Below are positions 35,700 to 41,710 of a stretch of 47,802 nt of DNA, one piece after another. A program made the translations under genes and the position numbers. The notes under the pieces were generated by a model. That model ran no database searches, had not been told where the DNA came from, and was given only the letters and a program-made list of their open reading frames with translations. This DNA comes from a virus (taxonomy: Duplodnaviria > Heunggongvirae > Uroviricota > Caudoviricetes): IMG/VR virus record IMGVR_UViG_2541047899_000009. The stretch is one strand, 5' to 3'. Each line of letters opens with the position of its first letter. Positions within the stretch are counted from its first letter, which is position 1.

Positions 35700-38498
35700 T
35701 CAGGCACCGTGACATTTTTTGTACTTTATTCCCGAGCCACAGGGGCATTGTTCATTCCGGCCGACCGCACCAAAAACTTCAGTTAATTTAGTCTTTGCTG
35801 CTTTATGGGCAAGCTGTACGATGTAATTTGATTGATTTTGGATTTCTTGACGCTGTACACCTGTGAGGCCTTCGATATAGGGAGCAAGGCGCTGCATTTC
35901 GACATCAGCTGCTTTATGCTGACCCGATAGTGCCAATATGACTGCGTACTGGCTTCGAACCTGAATCAGTCGATGTACTAGACCTGCCTCATTGACAACC
36001 GGCAGGACATGTTGCTCCATGACTTCCTTGGCACCGTCGTAATCCTTTATGGCAACAAACTCATCCGCCAGATCTTGGCCCACCCTGACCATGGATTCCG
36101 GGGCCATGGCCAGATTGTAGAACTTCATCGAATGAATACGCAGTAATGGTGACAGTTTTCCCTGCGCATCACGAATTCTGGCCAGCAACTCCAGAGCATC
36201 AGCCATATGTTTAAAGTGTTCCTGCATATTTTCGGAATGATTAATAGTTTTCCATAATGCGTCGGCGTTTTTTCCTATGACATCAGCAGGTGTGATACCA
36301 AATAAAGAATAGTACCCTTGTATAACATTACAGCTTAATGTTTCAGCATCCTTGAGTTTTTTTAATCTCCAGAGTGCAATGGCATGGTTGTAGTCAAAGA
36401 TGCGTTTATGTTCTTCATCTGGGAGTTGGGGGCGGACTTCCTGTGCCAGCTTTTGAACTTCTCGTGCATCATTGCTTTCTGCCGAAAATAACATTCGTTT
36501 CATTGCATAGGCCATCTCTTCTTGATAGCCGAACTTGTGCTCCGCAAGTAAAGCTCCCATGATGTTTAACCTCTGAGCAATGTGGTCGGATATTCCGTCT
36601 TTAAGCTCAACGAAAACAAGGCCATCCAATGCCCAGAATTTATGAACAGGTCCCAATAAGTCCGATGTTGCAGCACGCTCCAAGCTTGCAAGAATGTCGA
36701 CCGTCACGCCCATCTCATAAAACATTTCTTGGCCTGAGAGTTCGATCAACGTCGTGACATCATTAAGCTTAATATAAAGTTGAGTCAACAACGATAACCG
36801 TTTTGTATTGCGGGTATTATGAAGACTTTCAACTAAAAGGTCTTTCAGCGCTAGTAGCGCTTTGTTCGATATACCCTGATCCATCAGTTCCAGATGTTGC
36901 AGTCCTAGCCCCCTGACAGCATCATGTACCTTCAGGGTCTGGTTTCCATAAATTTCAATAGTGCCAGTAGCGCGCATTTTCCTAATTAAAGAAGCCGCAC
37001 TGCTTGGTGAAATGTTCAGCGAATTGATTAGGAGCGTAGAAATCTCTTCGCGACTCAGCCCTACGTCAGAGAGACTGAACAATGCCAGCGCGCTCTGAAG
37101 TAGTGATTCAAATCCCTGAAATACACGTGACAGAATAATTTCTTGGGCGGTTTCCGCAGTATGGGTTTGTTGCTGGAGTTCAGCACACAGAGCATCGACA
37201 CTACGCTCATAGTCAGAAACGGCGATTTTTGCGGCGCTCTCTACATACAGGGGAAGACCACCAGTGTAAGCCCGTAGCTGCTCGTATCCCATAGCGGTGG
37301 CAAATCCTCCGATATCGTTTACAACGACAGCTACCGTATCGAGATTCCATCCCTGCAGGCCCTCGCGCTGTAGCCCCGTCATGACCTCCAGTTCGCGAAC
37401 GTTTTCGTGAGGCTGGCACAACAGCACAAAACGAATATGTGTAGTTGCATTCAGAACATCCCGTAGATTTTCCGCAGGTACACGATGGGCGTTATCCAGA
37501 ACCAGCACCAAGGTGGTACCCTGCTCTTTCAGGTAGGTATCAAAACTCCTAAGAGCCTCAAAACCACTGGCTCCGGGGAGCAAAATCCTGCGCAAACCGT
37601 CTTGGTCACGGGCTGTAAATCTAGCAGCCATCTCCCGCACCAGCGTACTGGCCAGAGCTGGACCGGGAAGATCACCGGTGTCGTAATAAGCACAAAGTGC
37701 AGTGGAGTGTAATGCGGCCTGTGCGGCCCACGCTGTCTTGCCTGCACCTGAGAGTCCACAAAGGATACGGATCCGCTCACCAGATGTGAGAGAAGGTTCT
37801 TCGTTTTGTGGGCGGTACAGTGCTGGTGGTGCAGGAAAGTCCTGTAGCTGAACGATCAACTGTTCAAATAGTTCAGTAAGTTCCTCCGTGAAAAACGTAT
37901 GTTGTCCATTGGTATCGCCTCCGGTGGCGGCAAGCTGAACCAACCCTGCTAACTTCCAAATCAAGGATTCTGGGGACAATAGTGAAAATTTCAGCTTTTC
38001 TGCTTCTGCGATACACCATGTGGCCGCATCAGCCAGAGTACTCCATGCGGGCGGAAGTGCCGGGTGACGTCCAGCTGTCGACCGGGGCCAGACAATAAGA
38101 ACATCAGAAGGAAGCTTTTTATCGTCAATCATCTTCTGAAGCAGCGGTCCAGGCGCCTGGTTTACAATAATCACAAAAGAAGCCACCCCTTCGCGGTTTG
38201 CCGAAGTATGCTCATTTCTGAGCTTTACAAATCGCTCCAGAGCCCCCGACACATCGTTGGGCATAATAGGCTTTGAACGGGTTTTAACCTGAATGTAGAG
38301 ACGTTCCTGTTTGGATTTCAGCTCAATATCCTCATCAAGCTCGACAGTTACTGAGTCCATAGCAGCCCTCTGCGCCAAAAGTAAGCAGCCTACAGCGTAA
38401 AGATGCTGGTAAAGGAACCCCCGGTGTACCGCTTCGATACGCACCAACTGCACAGGATCCAGTACGTCCAGATGTTGTTTGTTTTCACTTCCCCACAT
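35700..38498 (-). CDS. STAND-like P-loop NTPase with N-terminal nuclease-like domain, helical repeat region and C-terminal SEC-C zinc motif; candidate Avs/NLR-like antiphage defence protein
   Basis: 932 aa. Walker A GLSGAGKT (about aa 248-255), Walker B LVLVLD (about aa 330-335), possible PD-(D/E)xK-like residues in the N-terminal 80 aa (VELDEDIELK...YIQVK), about 550 aa of predicted helical repeats, terminal CPCGSGIKYKKCHG. Single large gene flanked by AT-rich spacers immediately upstream of hokD. Confidence 0.6.
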   Translation of the reverse strand: MWGSENKQHLDVLDPVQLVRIEAVHRGFLYQHLYAVGCLLLAQRAAMDSVTVELDEDIELKSKQERLYIQVKTRSKPIMPNDVSGALERFVKLRNEHTSANREGVASFVIIVNQAPGPLLQKMIDDKKLPSDVLIVWPRSTAGRHPALPPAWSTLADAATWCIAEAEKLKFSLLSPESLIWKLAGLVQLAATGGDTNGQHTFFTEELTELFEQLIVQLQDFPAPPALYRPQNEEPSLTSGERIRILCGLSGAGKTAWAAQAALHSTALCAYYDTGDLPGPALASTLVREMAARFTARDQDGLRRILLPGASGFEALRSFDTYLKEQGTTLVLVLDNAHRVPAENLRDVLNATTHIRFVLLCQPHENVRELEVMTGLQREGLQGWNLDTVAVVVNDIGGFATAMGYEQLRAYTGGLPLYVESAAKIAVSDYERSVDALCAELQQQTHTAETAQEIILSRVFQGFESLLQSALALFSLSDVGLSREEISTLLINSLNISPSSAASLIRKMRATGTIEIYGNQTLKVHDAVRGLGLQHLELMDQGISNKALLALKDLLVESLHNTRNTKRLSLLTQLYIKLNDVTTLIELSGQEMFYEMGVTVDILASLERAATSDLLGPVHKFWALDGLVFVELKDGISDHIAQRLNIMGALLAEHKFGYQEEMAYAMKRMLFSAESNDAREVQKLAQEVRPQLPDEEHKRIFDYNHAIALWRLKKLKDAETLSCNVIQGYYSLFGITPADVIGKNADALWKTINHSENMQEHFKHMADALELLARIRDAQGKLSPLLRIHSMKFYNLAMAPESMVRVGQDLADEFVAIKDYDGAKEVMEQHVLPVVNEAGLVHRLIQVRSQYAVILALSGQHKAADVEMQRLAPYIEGLTGVQRQEIQNQSNYIVQLAHKAAKTKLTEVFGAVGRNEQCPCGSGIKYKKCHGA

Positions 38499-38732
38499 AA
38501 CCTATTCCTTGAGCTATTTGTTTGACGGACTCACATTAGTACTTCAATGTAATCAATTGAACTTGAATTATAATTAAAAGAGGCAAAGAAAAGTCATTTG
38601 GCCTATTCTCCGTTGATTAATACAAACTAACGATACCAACGTTCACCTGACTCAAAGCTGACAACCAGACTAGGTCTGGGCCTGTGCCATCGAAGTGTCA
38701 ATTAATATCTGAACTAATGCTCTTTAATTTCG

Positions 38733-39149
38733 TCACTTCAATAAATACCGAACATTTCCCTGATAAAATTCCAGTATGCGCTGCATAACTTCGCTCTGAC
38801 GACACTCGCGACAAATTATATTCTGTCGTCTGTTGTAACGGCGTATTTCGCCATCTAGCAATGAATAAATCAGGTCAGGGTCGCTCTTCTTTTTCACTGC
38901 CGCTCTCGACATTTTTTTGCGGGCTTTTCCCCAGTCCTTACTGGCCTGCTCCGAAGGAAATATTCCATGTCCTGAACCATATACTGCGCCACTAACTACC
39001 AGCTCTTTCGCCAGAACTTCTATCAGGTGTCTCGTCGCCCCGGTTTCATTTTCCAGTTGTTTACGCGTTTTTCGCCCATCTCTGCATACCAGTTCCACAA
39101 TGCGCGCCTTCACTTCTTCCCGCAGTTCGGGAGTAAAAACTTTTGCCAC
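38733..39149 (-). CDS. hypothetical basic protein (possible winged-helix DNA-binding), downstream of the replication initiator
   Basis: 138-aa ORF 37 bp after the replication gene; Lys/Arg-rich with C-terminal CRECRQ; no ATPase motifs. Confidence 0.45.
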   Translation of the reverse strand: MAKVFTPELREEVKARIVELVCRDGRKTRKQLENETGATRHLIEVLAKELVVSGAVYGSGHGIFPSEQASKDWGKARKKMSRAAVKKKSDPDLIYSLLDGEIRRYNRRQNIICRECRQSEVMQRILEFYQGNVRYLLK

Positions 39150-39186
39150 AAGCCCTCCTGAAAATTACCCCATGACCTGAAATCTG

Positions 39187-40263
39187 TTACCCTCTGAATC
39201 CCGGCGGAATTTCGGTGTCCGGTTCAGAAATATGATTAACACAACGCTGGTTGTTCGTGCCGCTTACCGGGAGCAACCAGGGGTTTTCAAAATTCCGGTC
39301 CGGTCCAAAAAACGTCGTCGCTCGCTGAACAAATTCCGTTCCCGTTTTCCCGGTAGCAGCCAGGTATCTTGTGTAACGCCTCACACCATCCAGCATGGCC
39401 TCTGGTGGCACCCCCTCGCGTAATCTGGCCTTCCAGGCACTGAAAGCGGATTTCTTCGGGTTTGCCCCGGCTCGTAACGGGTATTCCCGCCAGACCTGCT
39501 CGAACGCATCCGGATAATCCACTCGTCCCACAGGCTGCCCGGTGTTTTCCGGGACTACCCGATCGGCTTCCCGCTGAATGGCGGAATCGGCTTCAGGCTG
39601 CTGCAGTTGGTGTGATTGCTCCGGCCCTGCGGTCATCGCCTGCTGCACAGCGCCCGAATCGGCTTTCAGCGCATACGCTGAATCGGCTTCCGGTGTCGTG
39701 CCTGCGGGCTGGCCAGGAGTGACGGTCTGAACATCCCCTACATGGTTCGTGGCGTTTTTTACGCCAGGGACCATAGTGTTTTGATCTTCTTTATCTGTAT
39801 CTCTATCTGTATCTTTATCTGTCGTGACTCGTCGTGACATGTGCGTGACATTTCGTGACGCGCCGTGACAATCGCCATTTTGTTCCCGCTTTCTTTCCCT
39901 CTCACGCTGCGCCCTCTTGCGCTCTGCCGGAGATTTTGCGGTTTGCGAAATATTGCCGTTGTCCTCTTTAAGCACCTGGCGTTTCTCCCATCCAGTGATT
40001 AAATCACCATCAAGTACCCGCCCCTGCATCGTCTGCAAAATTGAATCAATTACCTCTTCTGTCACGTCGAGCGCACTTGCCAAATCTTCTGTCGTGACAT
40101 CAATGTGACCTCGCGTGACATTTCGTGACGCGCTCACCAGGAGGTGGATATACACTGCCATCACTGTTGCAATTGGCTGCCCTGACACCCTGGCAATTGT
40201 TCGCCACTTAGGGTCATTTGGCATGTCATGCCATAATCTGAGCCAAGCGTTAGCCATACTCAC
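39187..40263 (-). CDS. phage replication initiation protein (O-like, with internal iteron-bearing region)
   Basis: 358 aa; N-terminal DNA-binding-like region, low-complexity acidic/basic linker (KDTDRDTDKED), conserved C-terminal region (YPLRAGANPKKSAFSAWKARLREGV); the gene contains clustered direct repeats (see iteron feature). Confidence 0.65.
   Translation of the reverse strand: MSMANAWLRLWHDMPNDPKWRTIARVSGQPIATVMAVYIHLLVSASRNVTRGHIDVTTEDLASALDVTEEVIDSILQTMQGRVLDGDLITGWEKRQVLKEDNGNISQTAKSPAERKRAQRERERKREQNGDCHGASRNVTHMSRRVTTDKDTDRDTDKEDQNTMVPGVKNATNHVGDVQTVTPGQPAGTTPEADSAYALKADSGAVQQAMTAGPEQSHQLQQPEADSAIQREADRVVPENTGQPVGRVDYPDAFEQVWREYPLRAGANPKKSAFSAWKARLREGVPPEAMLDGVRRYTRYLAATGKTGTEFVQRATTFFGPDRNFENPWLLPVSGTNNQRCVNHISEPDTEIPPGFRG
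39790..40135. repeat. iteron-like direct repeats / putative replication origin inside the replication gene
   Basis: gcgtgacatttcgtgacgcgc occurs near 39843 and again near 40113; additional cgtgac copies (tcgtgactcgtcgtgacat, tctgtcgtgacatcaatgtgacc) and tctgtatct repeats in an adjacent AT-richer stretch. Confidence 0.55.
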
Positions 40264-40328
40264 CTCCTCTGATACCGAATCTTTTTACTCACGAATTGCC
40301 GGAAGCGATTCGATATGGCTATTGTCAG

Positions 40329-40754
40329 TCAATGTACTGCCACAGCATTTCCTGCCGGGCCACCACGGTTCATCTGATTGAAACCGGCGATTGCCACTGC
40401 GACAAAATCATCAGCGTCTCTCACCAGTCGCTCCCGCGTCTCCACCAGCTCCCGAAAATAAGTTGAACTGTGGCTGCGCATTCTGGCCACCAGCAAAGGT
40501 GGCATTGCCTTTTCGATCGCTGGTAACAACGCCTGAATTTTTTCAACTGCATCAGGGGTGTCTTTCTCTATCCAGCGGAAAATTTTCTGGGTATTGCGAG
40601 CCAGGGCTTCCGGATGGCTGTCGTCATACAGTTCCGGGAACGTCATACCCAGTTCGAAATACGCTTTGGTAATCTTCGCAGTCGGTACTTTTTCGCCGTC
40701 CGGATGCGCCCAGGCATTCATCGCCATGCGGATGTGTTCATGCTTGATTTTCAT
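40329..40754 (-). CDS. CII-like regulator (YdaT family)
   Basis: About 141 aa from MKIKHEHIRMAMNAWAHPDGEK...; position immediately after the Cro-like gene in the rightward early operon. Confidence 0.55.
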   Translation of the reverse strand: MKIKHEHIRMAMNAWAHPDGEKVPTAKITKAYFELGMTFPELYDDSHPEALARNTQKIFRWIEKDTPDAVEKIQALLPAIEKAMPPLLVARMRSHSSTYFRELVETRERLVRDADDFVAVAIAGFNQMNRGGPAGNAVAVH

Positions 40755-40980
40755 GAATCCCCCCTTGGTTAGAAGGCGGATTATGATCAGAATCGGGAAT
40801 GACAACCGTCGGTATGTGTAACTCATATTTGAGCGCCCCGGCAGTGACTGCCTGAATTAGCAACGCCCATTTCCACGGAACGTCTTCCCCCCACATGCTG
40901 ACTGTGGTTTTTGACGTTCCTAGAGCGGCGGCTGTTTTAACAACTCCGCCAAAATAGCCTAATACTTCTGATTTTTTCAT
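40738..40980 (-). CDS. Cro-like HTH repressor (YdaS family)
   Basis: About 80 aa from MKKSEVLGYFGGVVKTAAALGTSKTTVSMWGE (HTH); divergent from the CI-like gene. Confidence 0.65.
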   Translation of the reverse strand: MKKSEVLGYFGGVVKTAAALGTSKTTVSMWGEDVPWKWALLIQAVTAGALKYELHIPTVVIPDSDHNPPSNQGGIHENQA

Positions 40981-41071
40981 GAGTCGCTCCATAAAACTGA
41001 ACGCCAAAAGTTTAATAATCAAAACCAAAGAAAGTCAAGAAACAAAACCATCTGTGTTTTAAAATCAAAAC
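40981..41071. promoter_or_regulatory. divergent immunity promoter/operator region (OR analogue)
   Basis: 91-bp AT-rich intergenic region between divergent Cro-like and CI-like genes with partial palindromes (aaaactgaacgccaaaagttt, aaaaccatctgtgtttt). Confidence 0.5.
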
Positions 41072-41710
41072 ATGAACAAGCAAACAATATCTGAACGCAT
41101 AACCCAACGTATGCATGCGCTAAACTTGAAAGGCAAAGACCTTGTCAATGCCACTGGCGCATCAAAAGGCTCCGTAAGTCAATGGATGAACGGTGGAGGA
41201 GCGCCGTCCTCGCGTTACATAAGTTCACTGGCAAAGATATTGAAAGTAAACGAAAATTGGCTTCTTAATGGAGGAGAGTTAAATACAGGTGATTCGCTTG
41301 ATCTATCTTTACCGCCGATAAAAACGGTTCCGCTACTATCACTTCAGCAGGCAGCAAGCTGGAGTGATTATATGAAAAATTCCTCAATAACCTCTTGTGT
41401 GCAGCTTGTCGGAGAAATCCCGGCCAATACCTTTGCTGTTGTTCTAGAGAGTGACAGTATGTCGACATCTGGTGGTGGAGTTTCCATCCCAAATGGTTCA
41501 ACAGTTTTTGTTGATCCCGATCGAATCGTACAACCAGGAAATATTGTCCTTGCCTTACCCAAAGGGACCACAACGCCTGTCATTCGCAAACTGGAGATAG
41601 AAGGGCCGGATATTCTTTTAGTCCCCACGAATCCTCGCTACCCTTCAATTATGCTGGATGATCTATCTTGCATATTGGGAGTATGCTTTAAAATTCAACA
41701 AGATATTTAA
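41072..41710 (+). CDS. CI-like prophage repressor (HTH-XRE N-terminal domain + S24 LexA-like autopeptidase domain)
   Basis: 212 aa; HTH (GKDLVNATGASKGSVSQWMNG), S24 domain with Ser in VVLESDSMS and Lys in VIRKLEIEG. Confidence 0.85.
   Translation: MNKQTISERITQRMHALNLKGKDLVNATGASKGSVSQWMNGGGAPSSRYISSLAKILKVNENWLLNGGELNTGDSLDLSLPPIKTVPLLSLQQAASWSDYMKNSSITSCVQLVGEIPANTFAVVLESDSMSTSGGGVSIPNGSTVFVDPDRIVQPGNIVLALPKGTTTPVIRKLEIEGPDILLVPTNPRYPSIMLDDLSCILGVCFKIQQDI

Follow-up and report, generated by a model that had tools for sequence, protein, structure and literature searches.

The 47,802-nucleotide viral stretch IMGVR_UViG_2541047899_000009, referred to here over its whole length as the window, represents a Qin-like lambdoid prophage from E. 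coli that adjoins rspB. Its gene content comprises int, xis, exo, dicB, a cI-like repressor, cro, a YdaT/cII-like gene, a replication gene, an antiterminator, lysis genes and head genes. The present analysis concerns the replication gene, which encodes an initiator and contains two arrays of short GTCACG repeats (iterons) and an A-rich tract adjacent to the second of them. Judged from sequence comparison, both arrays and the tract probably constitute an iteron-type replication origin of the prophage with its unwinding element, located inside the initiator gene. The region 39187–40330 (1144 bp queried) is identical to a stretch of the E. coli WP4-S18-ESBL-07 chromosome, and the initiator is an annotated RefSeq coding sequence in the identical E. 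coli prophage. The gene follows cro (40738–41028) and the cII-like gene (40329–40826) in the early rightward operon, and in its product a disordered linker connects a predicted N-terminal winged-helix domain to a C-terminal module. The relevant features are the following (nt, nucleotide of the initiator gene; aa, amino acid of its product).

39187–40257, minus strand: initiator gene, 356 aa from the ATG at 40257; the reading frame is open up to a GTG at 40263
39973–40257, minus strand: predicted winged-helix DNA-binding domain, aa 1–95; AF2 model with helices 2–14, 16–25, 29–45, 56–63 and 67–77 and a beta hairpin/wing at 78–88
40113–40133, plus strand: exact 21-bp repeat, second exact copy
40093–40129, minus strand: iteron array 1, four GTCAC(G/A) at nt 128, 138, 148 and 159 (spacing 10, 10, 11)
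40061–40066, plus strand: inverted iteron core, a single GTCACG at nt 191–196, 33 bp downstream of array 1 in the gene
39843–39863, plus strand: exact 21-bp repeat, copy 1, equal to two iterons (10 + 11 bp, 7 codons)
39823–39869, minus strand: iteron array 2, five GTCACG at nt 388, 398, 408, 419 and 429
39783–39822, minus strand: A-rich, purine-rich tract of 40 bp, a putative DNA unwinding element; ACAGATAAAGATACAGATAGAGATACAGATAAAGAAGATC on the coding strand, encoding DKDTDRDTDKED
39782–39800, no strand: mosaic joint between the N-terminal module (domain, both arrays, A-rich tract) and an exchangeable C-terminal module; the alignment with locus L062 ends at 39800 and that with locus L061 starts at 39782

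Repeat arrays and A-rich tract

An earlier note on this DNA had described a 21-bp sequence occurring twice about 270 bp apart, further cgtgac copies around it and a stretch of tctgtatct repeats, all of which were recovered here. The 21-mer GCGTGACATTTCGTGACGCGC is present exactly twice in the window, 270 bp apart, whereas no match is expected from 100 shuffles even with three mismatches allowed. On the plus strand, CGTGAC appears at 39823, 39833, 39844, 39854 and 39864 (spacing 10, 11, 10 and 10) and again at 40093, 40114 and 40124, with TGTGAC at 40104, in addition to the single inverted GTCACG. Eight of the 19 CGTGAC copies of the 47.8 kb fall inside two stretches of ~45 bp; likewise, the arrangement GTGAC-N5-GTGAC was observed five times against 0.10 expected, always inside the arrays, and nowhere in the window was there a further triplet of GTGAC or GTCAC within 45 bp. 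A repeat finder, the check that had been proposed, also detected array 2 (TRF, period 10, 4.9 copies).

Array 2 runs straight into the A-rich tract, where the tctgtatct stretch corresponds to 2.9 copies of the 12-bp unit TCTTTATCTGTA at 39788–39822. Positions 39783–39818 form the least stable 36-bp duplex (dG −38.3 kcal/mol) of the 2.4 kb between 38700 and 41100, intergenic DNA included. The GC content of the tract is 28% versus 54% for the gene, and its AT skew ranges from −0.47 to −0.50, the coding strand being strongly A-rich. At this scale GC skew was uninformative, no clustering of GATC was found, and a scan for promoters and terminators gave counts not above those of shuffles, one of the ‘promoter’ hits being two iterons.

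At the protein level, array 1 encodes aa 43–55 (ASRNVTRGHIDVT), which comprise the end of helix 3 and the loop preceding the helix-turn-helix, while array 2 encodes aa 130–146 and, together with the A-rich tract, specifies the start of the disordered linker (aa 130–160). Successive hexamers are read in different reading frames. The peptide ASRNVT occurs at aa 43–48 and 133–138; hence the duplicated peptide that had been noticed is real, but only its second copy belongs to the linker, since the first is part of the folded winged-helix domain in the AF2 model.

Constraint and co-variation among homologues

A genome scan yielded 58 loci encoding relatives of the N-terminal domain (N-domain), from enterobacteria to Acidobacteria. 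Because the peptide SRNVTRGH-DVT is invariant in the group with GTCACG cores, and SRxVT recurs in a linker that is otherwise unconserved, the DNA and protein levels had to be separated. The codon test set consisted of 18 GTCACG-core genes from different genera, with N-domain identities of 64–86% and host GC contents of 34–63%, and the iteron columns were chosen from the window sequence alone. The mean fraction of the top codon was 0.96 at the 13 hexamer codons versus 0.53 at 59 other codons for conserved residues (Mann-Whitney p=3e-8). In array 1, V47 GTC, T48 ACG, G50 GGT, H51 CAC, V54 GTC and T55 ACG were fixed in 18/18 genes, as were S134 TCA and V144 GTC in array 2. V65 GTG, which forms the inverted copy, was fixed in 15/15 genes, GTGAC being present at nt 192 in most homologues, and the codons of the A-rich tract were likewise fixed in the GTCACG group (top-codon fraction 0.93). 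Since the commonest codon averages 0.53 outside the repeats, silent sites there are saturated, and the freezing of the hexamer codons against this background implies that selection acts on DNA. The codon data thus indicate that the repeats are under selection as nucleic acid and not merely through the protein. A comparable contrast was obtained in the clade with CGAACG cores (0.97 at iteron codons versus 0.57, p=2.7e-6), a comparison that is partly circular as its columns were picked by motif presence.

The earlier note had regarded the absence of the repeats from homologous initiator genes, with the origin mapped elsewhere, as grounds for rejecting its proposal; most homologues contain the repeats. 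Even in distant ones, array 1 is located at about nt 130–160 and array 2 at about nt 350–430, with 2–7 copies each, followed by a purine-rich hexanucleotide repeat, which in most homologues is (AGATAA)n or (AGATAC)n after array 2. The core word changes in both arrays together while the layout is kept. Many beta-proteobacterial, acidobacterial and planctomycete genes use CGAACG(C), and GTAACG is found in loci L005, L024, L031 and L040 and GTGACG in L056, so that the cores GTCACGC, GTAACGC, GTGACGC and CGAACGC share ACGC. The CGAACG group is devoid of the inverted copy. Over 47 loci, adjacent cores are spaced by 10 bp in 161 cases and by 11 bp in 40, and the median distance from the first core of one array to the first of the other is 250 bp. 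These alignments point to a bipartite, in-frame design common to many phages.

Copy number shifts by two iterons (21 bp, 7 codons) with the reading frame kept, and the exact 21-mer of the window is one such double-iteron unit. Two extra iterons are present in array 1 of E. albertii L004 and E. coli L062, P0015 and P0019, whereas array 2 of the window has two more iterons than that of most relatives. As a separate observation, in L042 (a Serratia metagenome-assembled genome) and L057 (Pantoea sp.), both without recognisable iterons, the linker region of array 2 (nt ~330–500) holds instead ..VRVGISRNPWARCKDLKS.., a segment that looked, judged by eye, like a GIY-YIG-type nuclease.

The reciprocal search was performed in IMG/VR with the bare DNA pattern GTCACG-N4-GTCACG-N4-GTCAC, which returned at least 120 stretches, most of them with two matches ~260 bp apart. 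Among the 80 loci examined, 53 encode an N-domain homologue, and all the matches in those loci (119/119) are on the coding strand, at gene offsets of 128 or 138 and ~388–440. The other 27 matches are mostly located in the linker of other open reading frames (ORFs). Eight of ten tested ORFs from the remaining loci match PHROGs of replication initiators, replisome organisers or DnaD-like loaders, and a few matches are intergenic (L081, L092, L098 and L141). Tandem GTCACG repeats in viral contigs are therefore found almost only in initiator genes.

Within E. coli genomes, many matches to the gene cover the C-terminal half alone, or the N-terminal half with the repeats alone. Locus L062 combines the same N half and both arrays with a DnaT-like C-domain, followed by a lambda-P-like gene, while L061 has a different N half in front of the same C half, which is shared from 39782 onwards, and its next gene is DnaC-like. 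The exchange point coincides with the end of the A-rich tract, and on the evidence of these alignments the arrays and the tract belong to the N-terminal module of the initiator, which is presumably the origin-specific one. That arrays remain with the N half while C halves are exchanged is also known from lambda O.

The N half of L061 has no detectable similarity to the window protein (hhalign probability <1%) and contains repeats of its own, namely AAGGGGCTT at nt 184 and 195 with GGGCTT at 171, and AAGGGGCTT again at nt 440, 451 and 462, followed by (GAACAG)n. Its assignment to DUF1376 was rejected, as it gave no such Pfam match. DUF1376 is the N-domain of ydaU from the Rac prophage (L063, E. 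coli K-12, 1620–2477), which is likewise without detectable similarity to the window protein. The ydaU-ydaV region shares the gene order of the window (ydaS/cro-like, ydaT, initiator), and ydaU has repeats in its N-domain part and linker followed by a tract of the same kind, GATACAGATAAAGAT, although its GATGTTCAA-type repeats are looser. An active origin, oriJ, has been reported in Rac (PMC3945230), and the ydaU repeats and tract may mark it. The ydaU tract, AATAAAGATACAGATAAAGAT, is nearly the same as the A-rich tract of the window in spite of the lack of detectable similarity between the proteins, and A-rich tracts of this type may act as a shared recombination joint.

Interpretation as a probable replication origin

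The frozen silent codons, the paired change of the core word, the linkage to the N half, the least stable tract and the viral-contig scan all support the proposal of the earlier note that these are initiator-binding iterons forming an origin within the initiator gene. The origin appears bipartite, one array being embedded in the coding sequence of the DNA-binding domain. After induction, the initiator would be produced from the early rightward operon together with cro and the cII-like gene, and its N-terminal winged-helix domains would bind the hexamers head-to-tail. As the hexamers are spaced one helical turn apart, they lie on one face of the DNA. Across the 260 bp that separate the arrays, the proteins bound to them may interact and so put the intervening DNA under constraint; the resulting stress could open the neighbouring (GATAAA/GATACA)n tract at 39783–39822, and the C-terminal module might then bring in the host helicase machinery.

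This arrangement recalls the lambda ori, which consists of four iterons, each an 18-bp inverted repeat, together with 39 bp of high-AT DNA, midway through gene O (PMC6022878, PMC7466680). The candidate origin of the window shares with it a place inside the initiator gene, which in the early rightward operon comes after cro and cII, and an order in which repeated sites for the initiator precede an AT-rich unwinding tract as transcription proceeds; in the window, array 2 and the A-rich tract have this order and position. Both also sit where an N-terminal half for origin binding joins a C-terminal half dealing with the helicase loader. Iteron number also varies in-frame among lambda and Stx-phage origins, with four versus six copies (PMC7466680, PMC6022878). 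The lambdoid placement that had been suggested is thus supported as regards location inside the initiator gene. There are also differences: the window protein lacks the lambda O domain and is no homologue of lambda O; its sites are direct cores of 6–7 bp with a phasing of 10–11 bp, whereas in lambda an O dimer binds each 18-bp inverted repeat; the sequence encoding the DNA-binding domain holds a second array, 260 bp upstream, which differs from the single mid-gene block of lambda; and no P gene adjoins the initiator.

In phage SPP1, oriL comprises repeats in direct orientation together with an AT-rich unwinding element inside gene 38, and is bound by gp38 (PMC6316719). The window resembles it in having repeats and a putative unwinding element within the initiator's own gene, and its N-domain is collinear with the Phage_rep_org_N model, some database records naming the protein replisome organiser, although the family match is below threshold. 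Unlike the window, where two arrays share a single locus and genes for a loader or helicase are missing, SPP1 has a further origin (oriR, at a distance of 13 kb) and encodes a loader and a helicase of its own, gp39 and gp40. Relative to both lambda and SPP1, the short cores with one-turn phasing, the two arrays about 25 turns apart and the lack of a loader or helicase gene beside the initiator are distinctive. In plasmid origins of the RepA, pi and TrfA type the iterons measure ~17–22 bp, are not part of the rep gene and tend to occur together with DnaA boxes; the window differs on each count. A design comparable to that proposed for the window, with tandem direct repeats bound by winged-helix initiators, an adjacent AT-rich unwinding element and possible auxiliary repeat clusters at a distance, is nevertheless known from these plasmid origins (PMC4980987, PMC4081077).

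Other explanations for the repeats have to be considered. The arrays could be purely regulatory sites, such as an autoregulatory roadblock or operator, for the initiator or another early protein, with replication starting elsewhere. They lie inside a transcribed gene, some origin-binding proteins also autoregulate, selection on DNA and co-variation would be expected for any site bound by the N-domain, and array 1 is dispensable in some homologues (L034 and L037). However, the layout matches the mapped origins of lambda and SPP1 (PMC7466680, PMC6316719), a plain operator would have no need for the low-stability, purine-rich tract that follows array 2 in most homologues, and the 47.8-kb window offers no other motif cluster or iteron-like array. 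We consequently regard an exclusively regulatory function as improbable.

It seems very improbable that the repeats take part in a different DNA transaction, be it packaging (as a pac site), partition, or recombination at a hot spot for module exchange. Some pac sites are made of hexamer repeats, the joint between the N and C modules falls at the A-rich repeat, and the similar GATAAAGATACAGATAAAGA tract of Rac ydaU may favour recombination. Nevertheless, the arrays are tied to the initiator N-domain in hosts from enterobacteria to Acidobacteria, the viral-contig motif falls in replication-initiator ORFs, and the lambda-like terminase genes of the prophage are far from the arrays. Regulatory, packaging or recombination roles hence fit less well with the low-stability tract and the link to initiator genes than an origin does.

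A constraint on the mRNA, either on its structure or on a site for an RNA-binding factor, would agree with the location of every direct copy on the coding strand and with the potential of the inverted copy at nt 191–196 to pair with a direct one. It is exceedingly improbable in view of the fold of 39780–40140, no more stable than shuffles (z = −0.46), the lack of any Rfam match on the coding strand, the missing inverted copy in the CGAACG group, the intergenic occurrence of the same tandem motif in L081, L092, L098 and L141, and a spacing of one turn of DNA that has no obvious meaning for RNA. Finally, that the DNA repeats are a by-product of a duplicated ASRNVT motif needed by the protein is hardly credible despite the invariant SRNVTRGH-DVT and the SRxVT of the linker, as the codon data contradict a protein-only explanation: silent positions at these residues are frozen across hosts of 34–63% GC (G50 GGT and S134 TCA, both 18/18) while other invariant residues use all their codons, successive hexamers lie in different frames, and outside these residues the linker shows no conservation and is modelled as disordered.

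Several results weigh against an origin at this place. No DnaA box with one mismatch or fewer was detected in 38600–41200, a search for the IHF consensus found none, and neither the ORF list nor the RefSeq annotation contains a helicase-loader or helicase gene adjoining the initiator. The core of 6–7 bp is shorter than classical iterons (18–22 bp). Among the homologues, L034 and L037 are without array 1, and L027, L029, L041, L042, L044, L046 and L057 show no obvious repeats. The N-domain gave no significant match to any characterised origin-binding family, and a Foldseek search of the AF2 model against the PDB produced no significant hit (best E 0.69), its weak matches being all winged-helix regulators; the winged-helix fold class is thus suggested by the model rather than established. 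In addition, the helix-turn-helix and wing are nearly alike in groups with different cores, and residues of the recognition helix tracking the iteron core were sought without any being found.

A replication origin nevertheless remains our preferred and the most likely interpretation; an iteron origin inside the initiator gene is an expected kind of element, here in a family for which no earlier description was found. A literature search retrieved no account of an origin for this initiator family, of the GTCACG iteron or of DUF1376 origins, although the wider literature may differ. A broader proposal would be that of an unrecognised and very widespread two-part origin, written twice in the frame of the initiator, with some 25 helical turns between the copy in the linker and that in a loop of the DNA-binding domain, and followed by a purine-rich unwinding tract at which modules are also swapped, N halves without detectable similarity having arrived at comparable designs; we consider this rather unlikely. 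In its strongest form, the iteron-encoded peptide (SRNVTRGH.. versus SNATERGRTQ..) may contribute to iteron recognition, in which case the same nucleotides would specify both the site and a portion of what reads it. The segment encoded by array 1 is the one that differs most between core groups, and a helix-turn-helix barely differing between them would be explained if the peptide were reading the iterons. L037 counts against a simple model of this kind as it combines a CGAACG-group-like domain with GTCACG linker repeats; since L034 moreover lacks array 1, the loop is not the sole reader.

These data provide a candidate origin for a replication module, for which no mapped origin was found, that about 30% of complete E. 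coli genomes contain (1647/5426, counting matches over at least 80% of the region). Phages of many other hosts, among them Pseudomonas, Aeromonas and Ralstonia, also carry this module. A phased short repeat present twice in a gene, frozen silent sites and a purine-rich hexanucleotide tract could serve as a computational signature for such origins, and the position of the candidate origin would explain the mosaicism of initiator genes at one precise point. Recoding or codon optimisation of these genes would destroy the cis-acting site. The co-varying series GTCACG, GTAACG, GTGACG and CGAACG offers material for studying how initiator specificity evolves.

Initiator protein and prophage context

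The initiator matches PHROG 3729, ‘replication initiation protein’, from end to end (E 8.5e-251). The phages Tritos, Evi and vB_EcoS-640R1 carry it at 96–97% identity, and the labels in these records include ‘DNA replication protein O’, ‘replisome organiser’ and ‘primosomal protein I’. Position and record annotation are in agreement with the ‘O-like’ designation used previously; by contrast, the Pfam lambda-O domain (Phage_rep_O) did not match the window protein, even at E up to 10, nor did it match any aligned homologue. Membership of the lambda O family was rejected, both the domain test and the iteron-type test having failed. Pfam and NCBIfam assigned no significant family, with sub-threshold hits to Phage_rep_org_N, HTH_Crp_2 and the DnaT C-terminal tail. 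The score against PF09681 (Phage_rep_org_N) was 12.8 bits for a cut-off of 23.3 (E 0.12) and that against TIGR01714 was 15.4 bits for a cut-off of 49.8 (E 0.016), both below threshold. The Phage_rep_org_N alignment is collinear over the full model and the whole N-domain, and a remote kinship of the N-domain with these replisome organisers is possible. In a profile search of PDB sequences the N-domain matched nothing, whereas the DnaT-like C-domains of other family members did find matches.

The AF2 model, built on 22 homologues, is confident for aa 1–95 (pLDDT 84–94 over most of the segment), and aa 134–249 are modelled as disordered. Directly before the iteron-coding stretch, aa 107–126 (39880–39939, AKSPAERKRAQRERERKRE) form a basic ‘AERKRxQRER’ helix. 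The same helix is found in many viral-contig initiator ORFs that have quite different N-domains but contain GTCACG repeats, and it might take part in DNA binding.

As regards the helicase partners, a DnaC-like gene accompanies the same C half in relatives (L061, 1746–2492), and the same N half occurs with a lambda-P-like gene (L062, 1485–1946) or, in Pseudomonas, with a DnaB-like helicase. Phage Tritos shows the same loader-less layout as the window prophage and, since it shares this layout, the latter is presumably functional. In a plasmid collection the initiator gene was seen only in large plasmids and in two circular Pseudomonas phage genomes of 51 kb; no small natural replicon carrying it, which would have represented a natural experiment, was found in that collection.

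Many database copies of the initiator protein are annotated as ‘partial’ and situated at contig ends, one cluster comprising 1121 members on contigs of ~700 bp. Short-read assemblies thus seem to end frequently within the gene, perhaps owing to the presence of several prophages per genome that share modules of it.

Elsewhere in the prophage, the cI-like repressor is encoded on the plus strand at 41072–41710 by an ORF of 212 aa with an N-terminal helix-turn-helix and an S24 peptidase domain. RefSeq calls only its last 113 aa in the identical prophage (41372–41710, ‘LexA family protein’), and the DNA-binding half of the repressor is therefore unannotated there. On the other side of the initiator, a DUF977 gene starts 38 bp after it (38733–39187 region), and two genes downstream, at 35700–38498 on the minus strand, there is a 932-aa gene whose product displays an N-terminal Cap4/LmuA-like nuclease, an AAA ATPase and a C-terminal SEC-C zinc motif. 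As the same slot holds other cargo in phage Tritos (ImmA-like and others), this gene looks like a defence-type moron.

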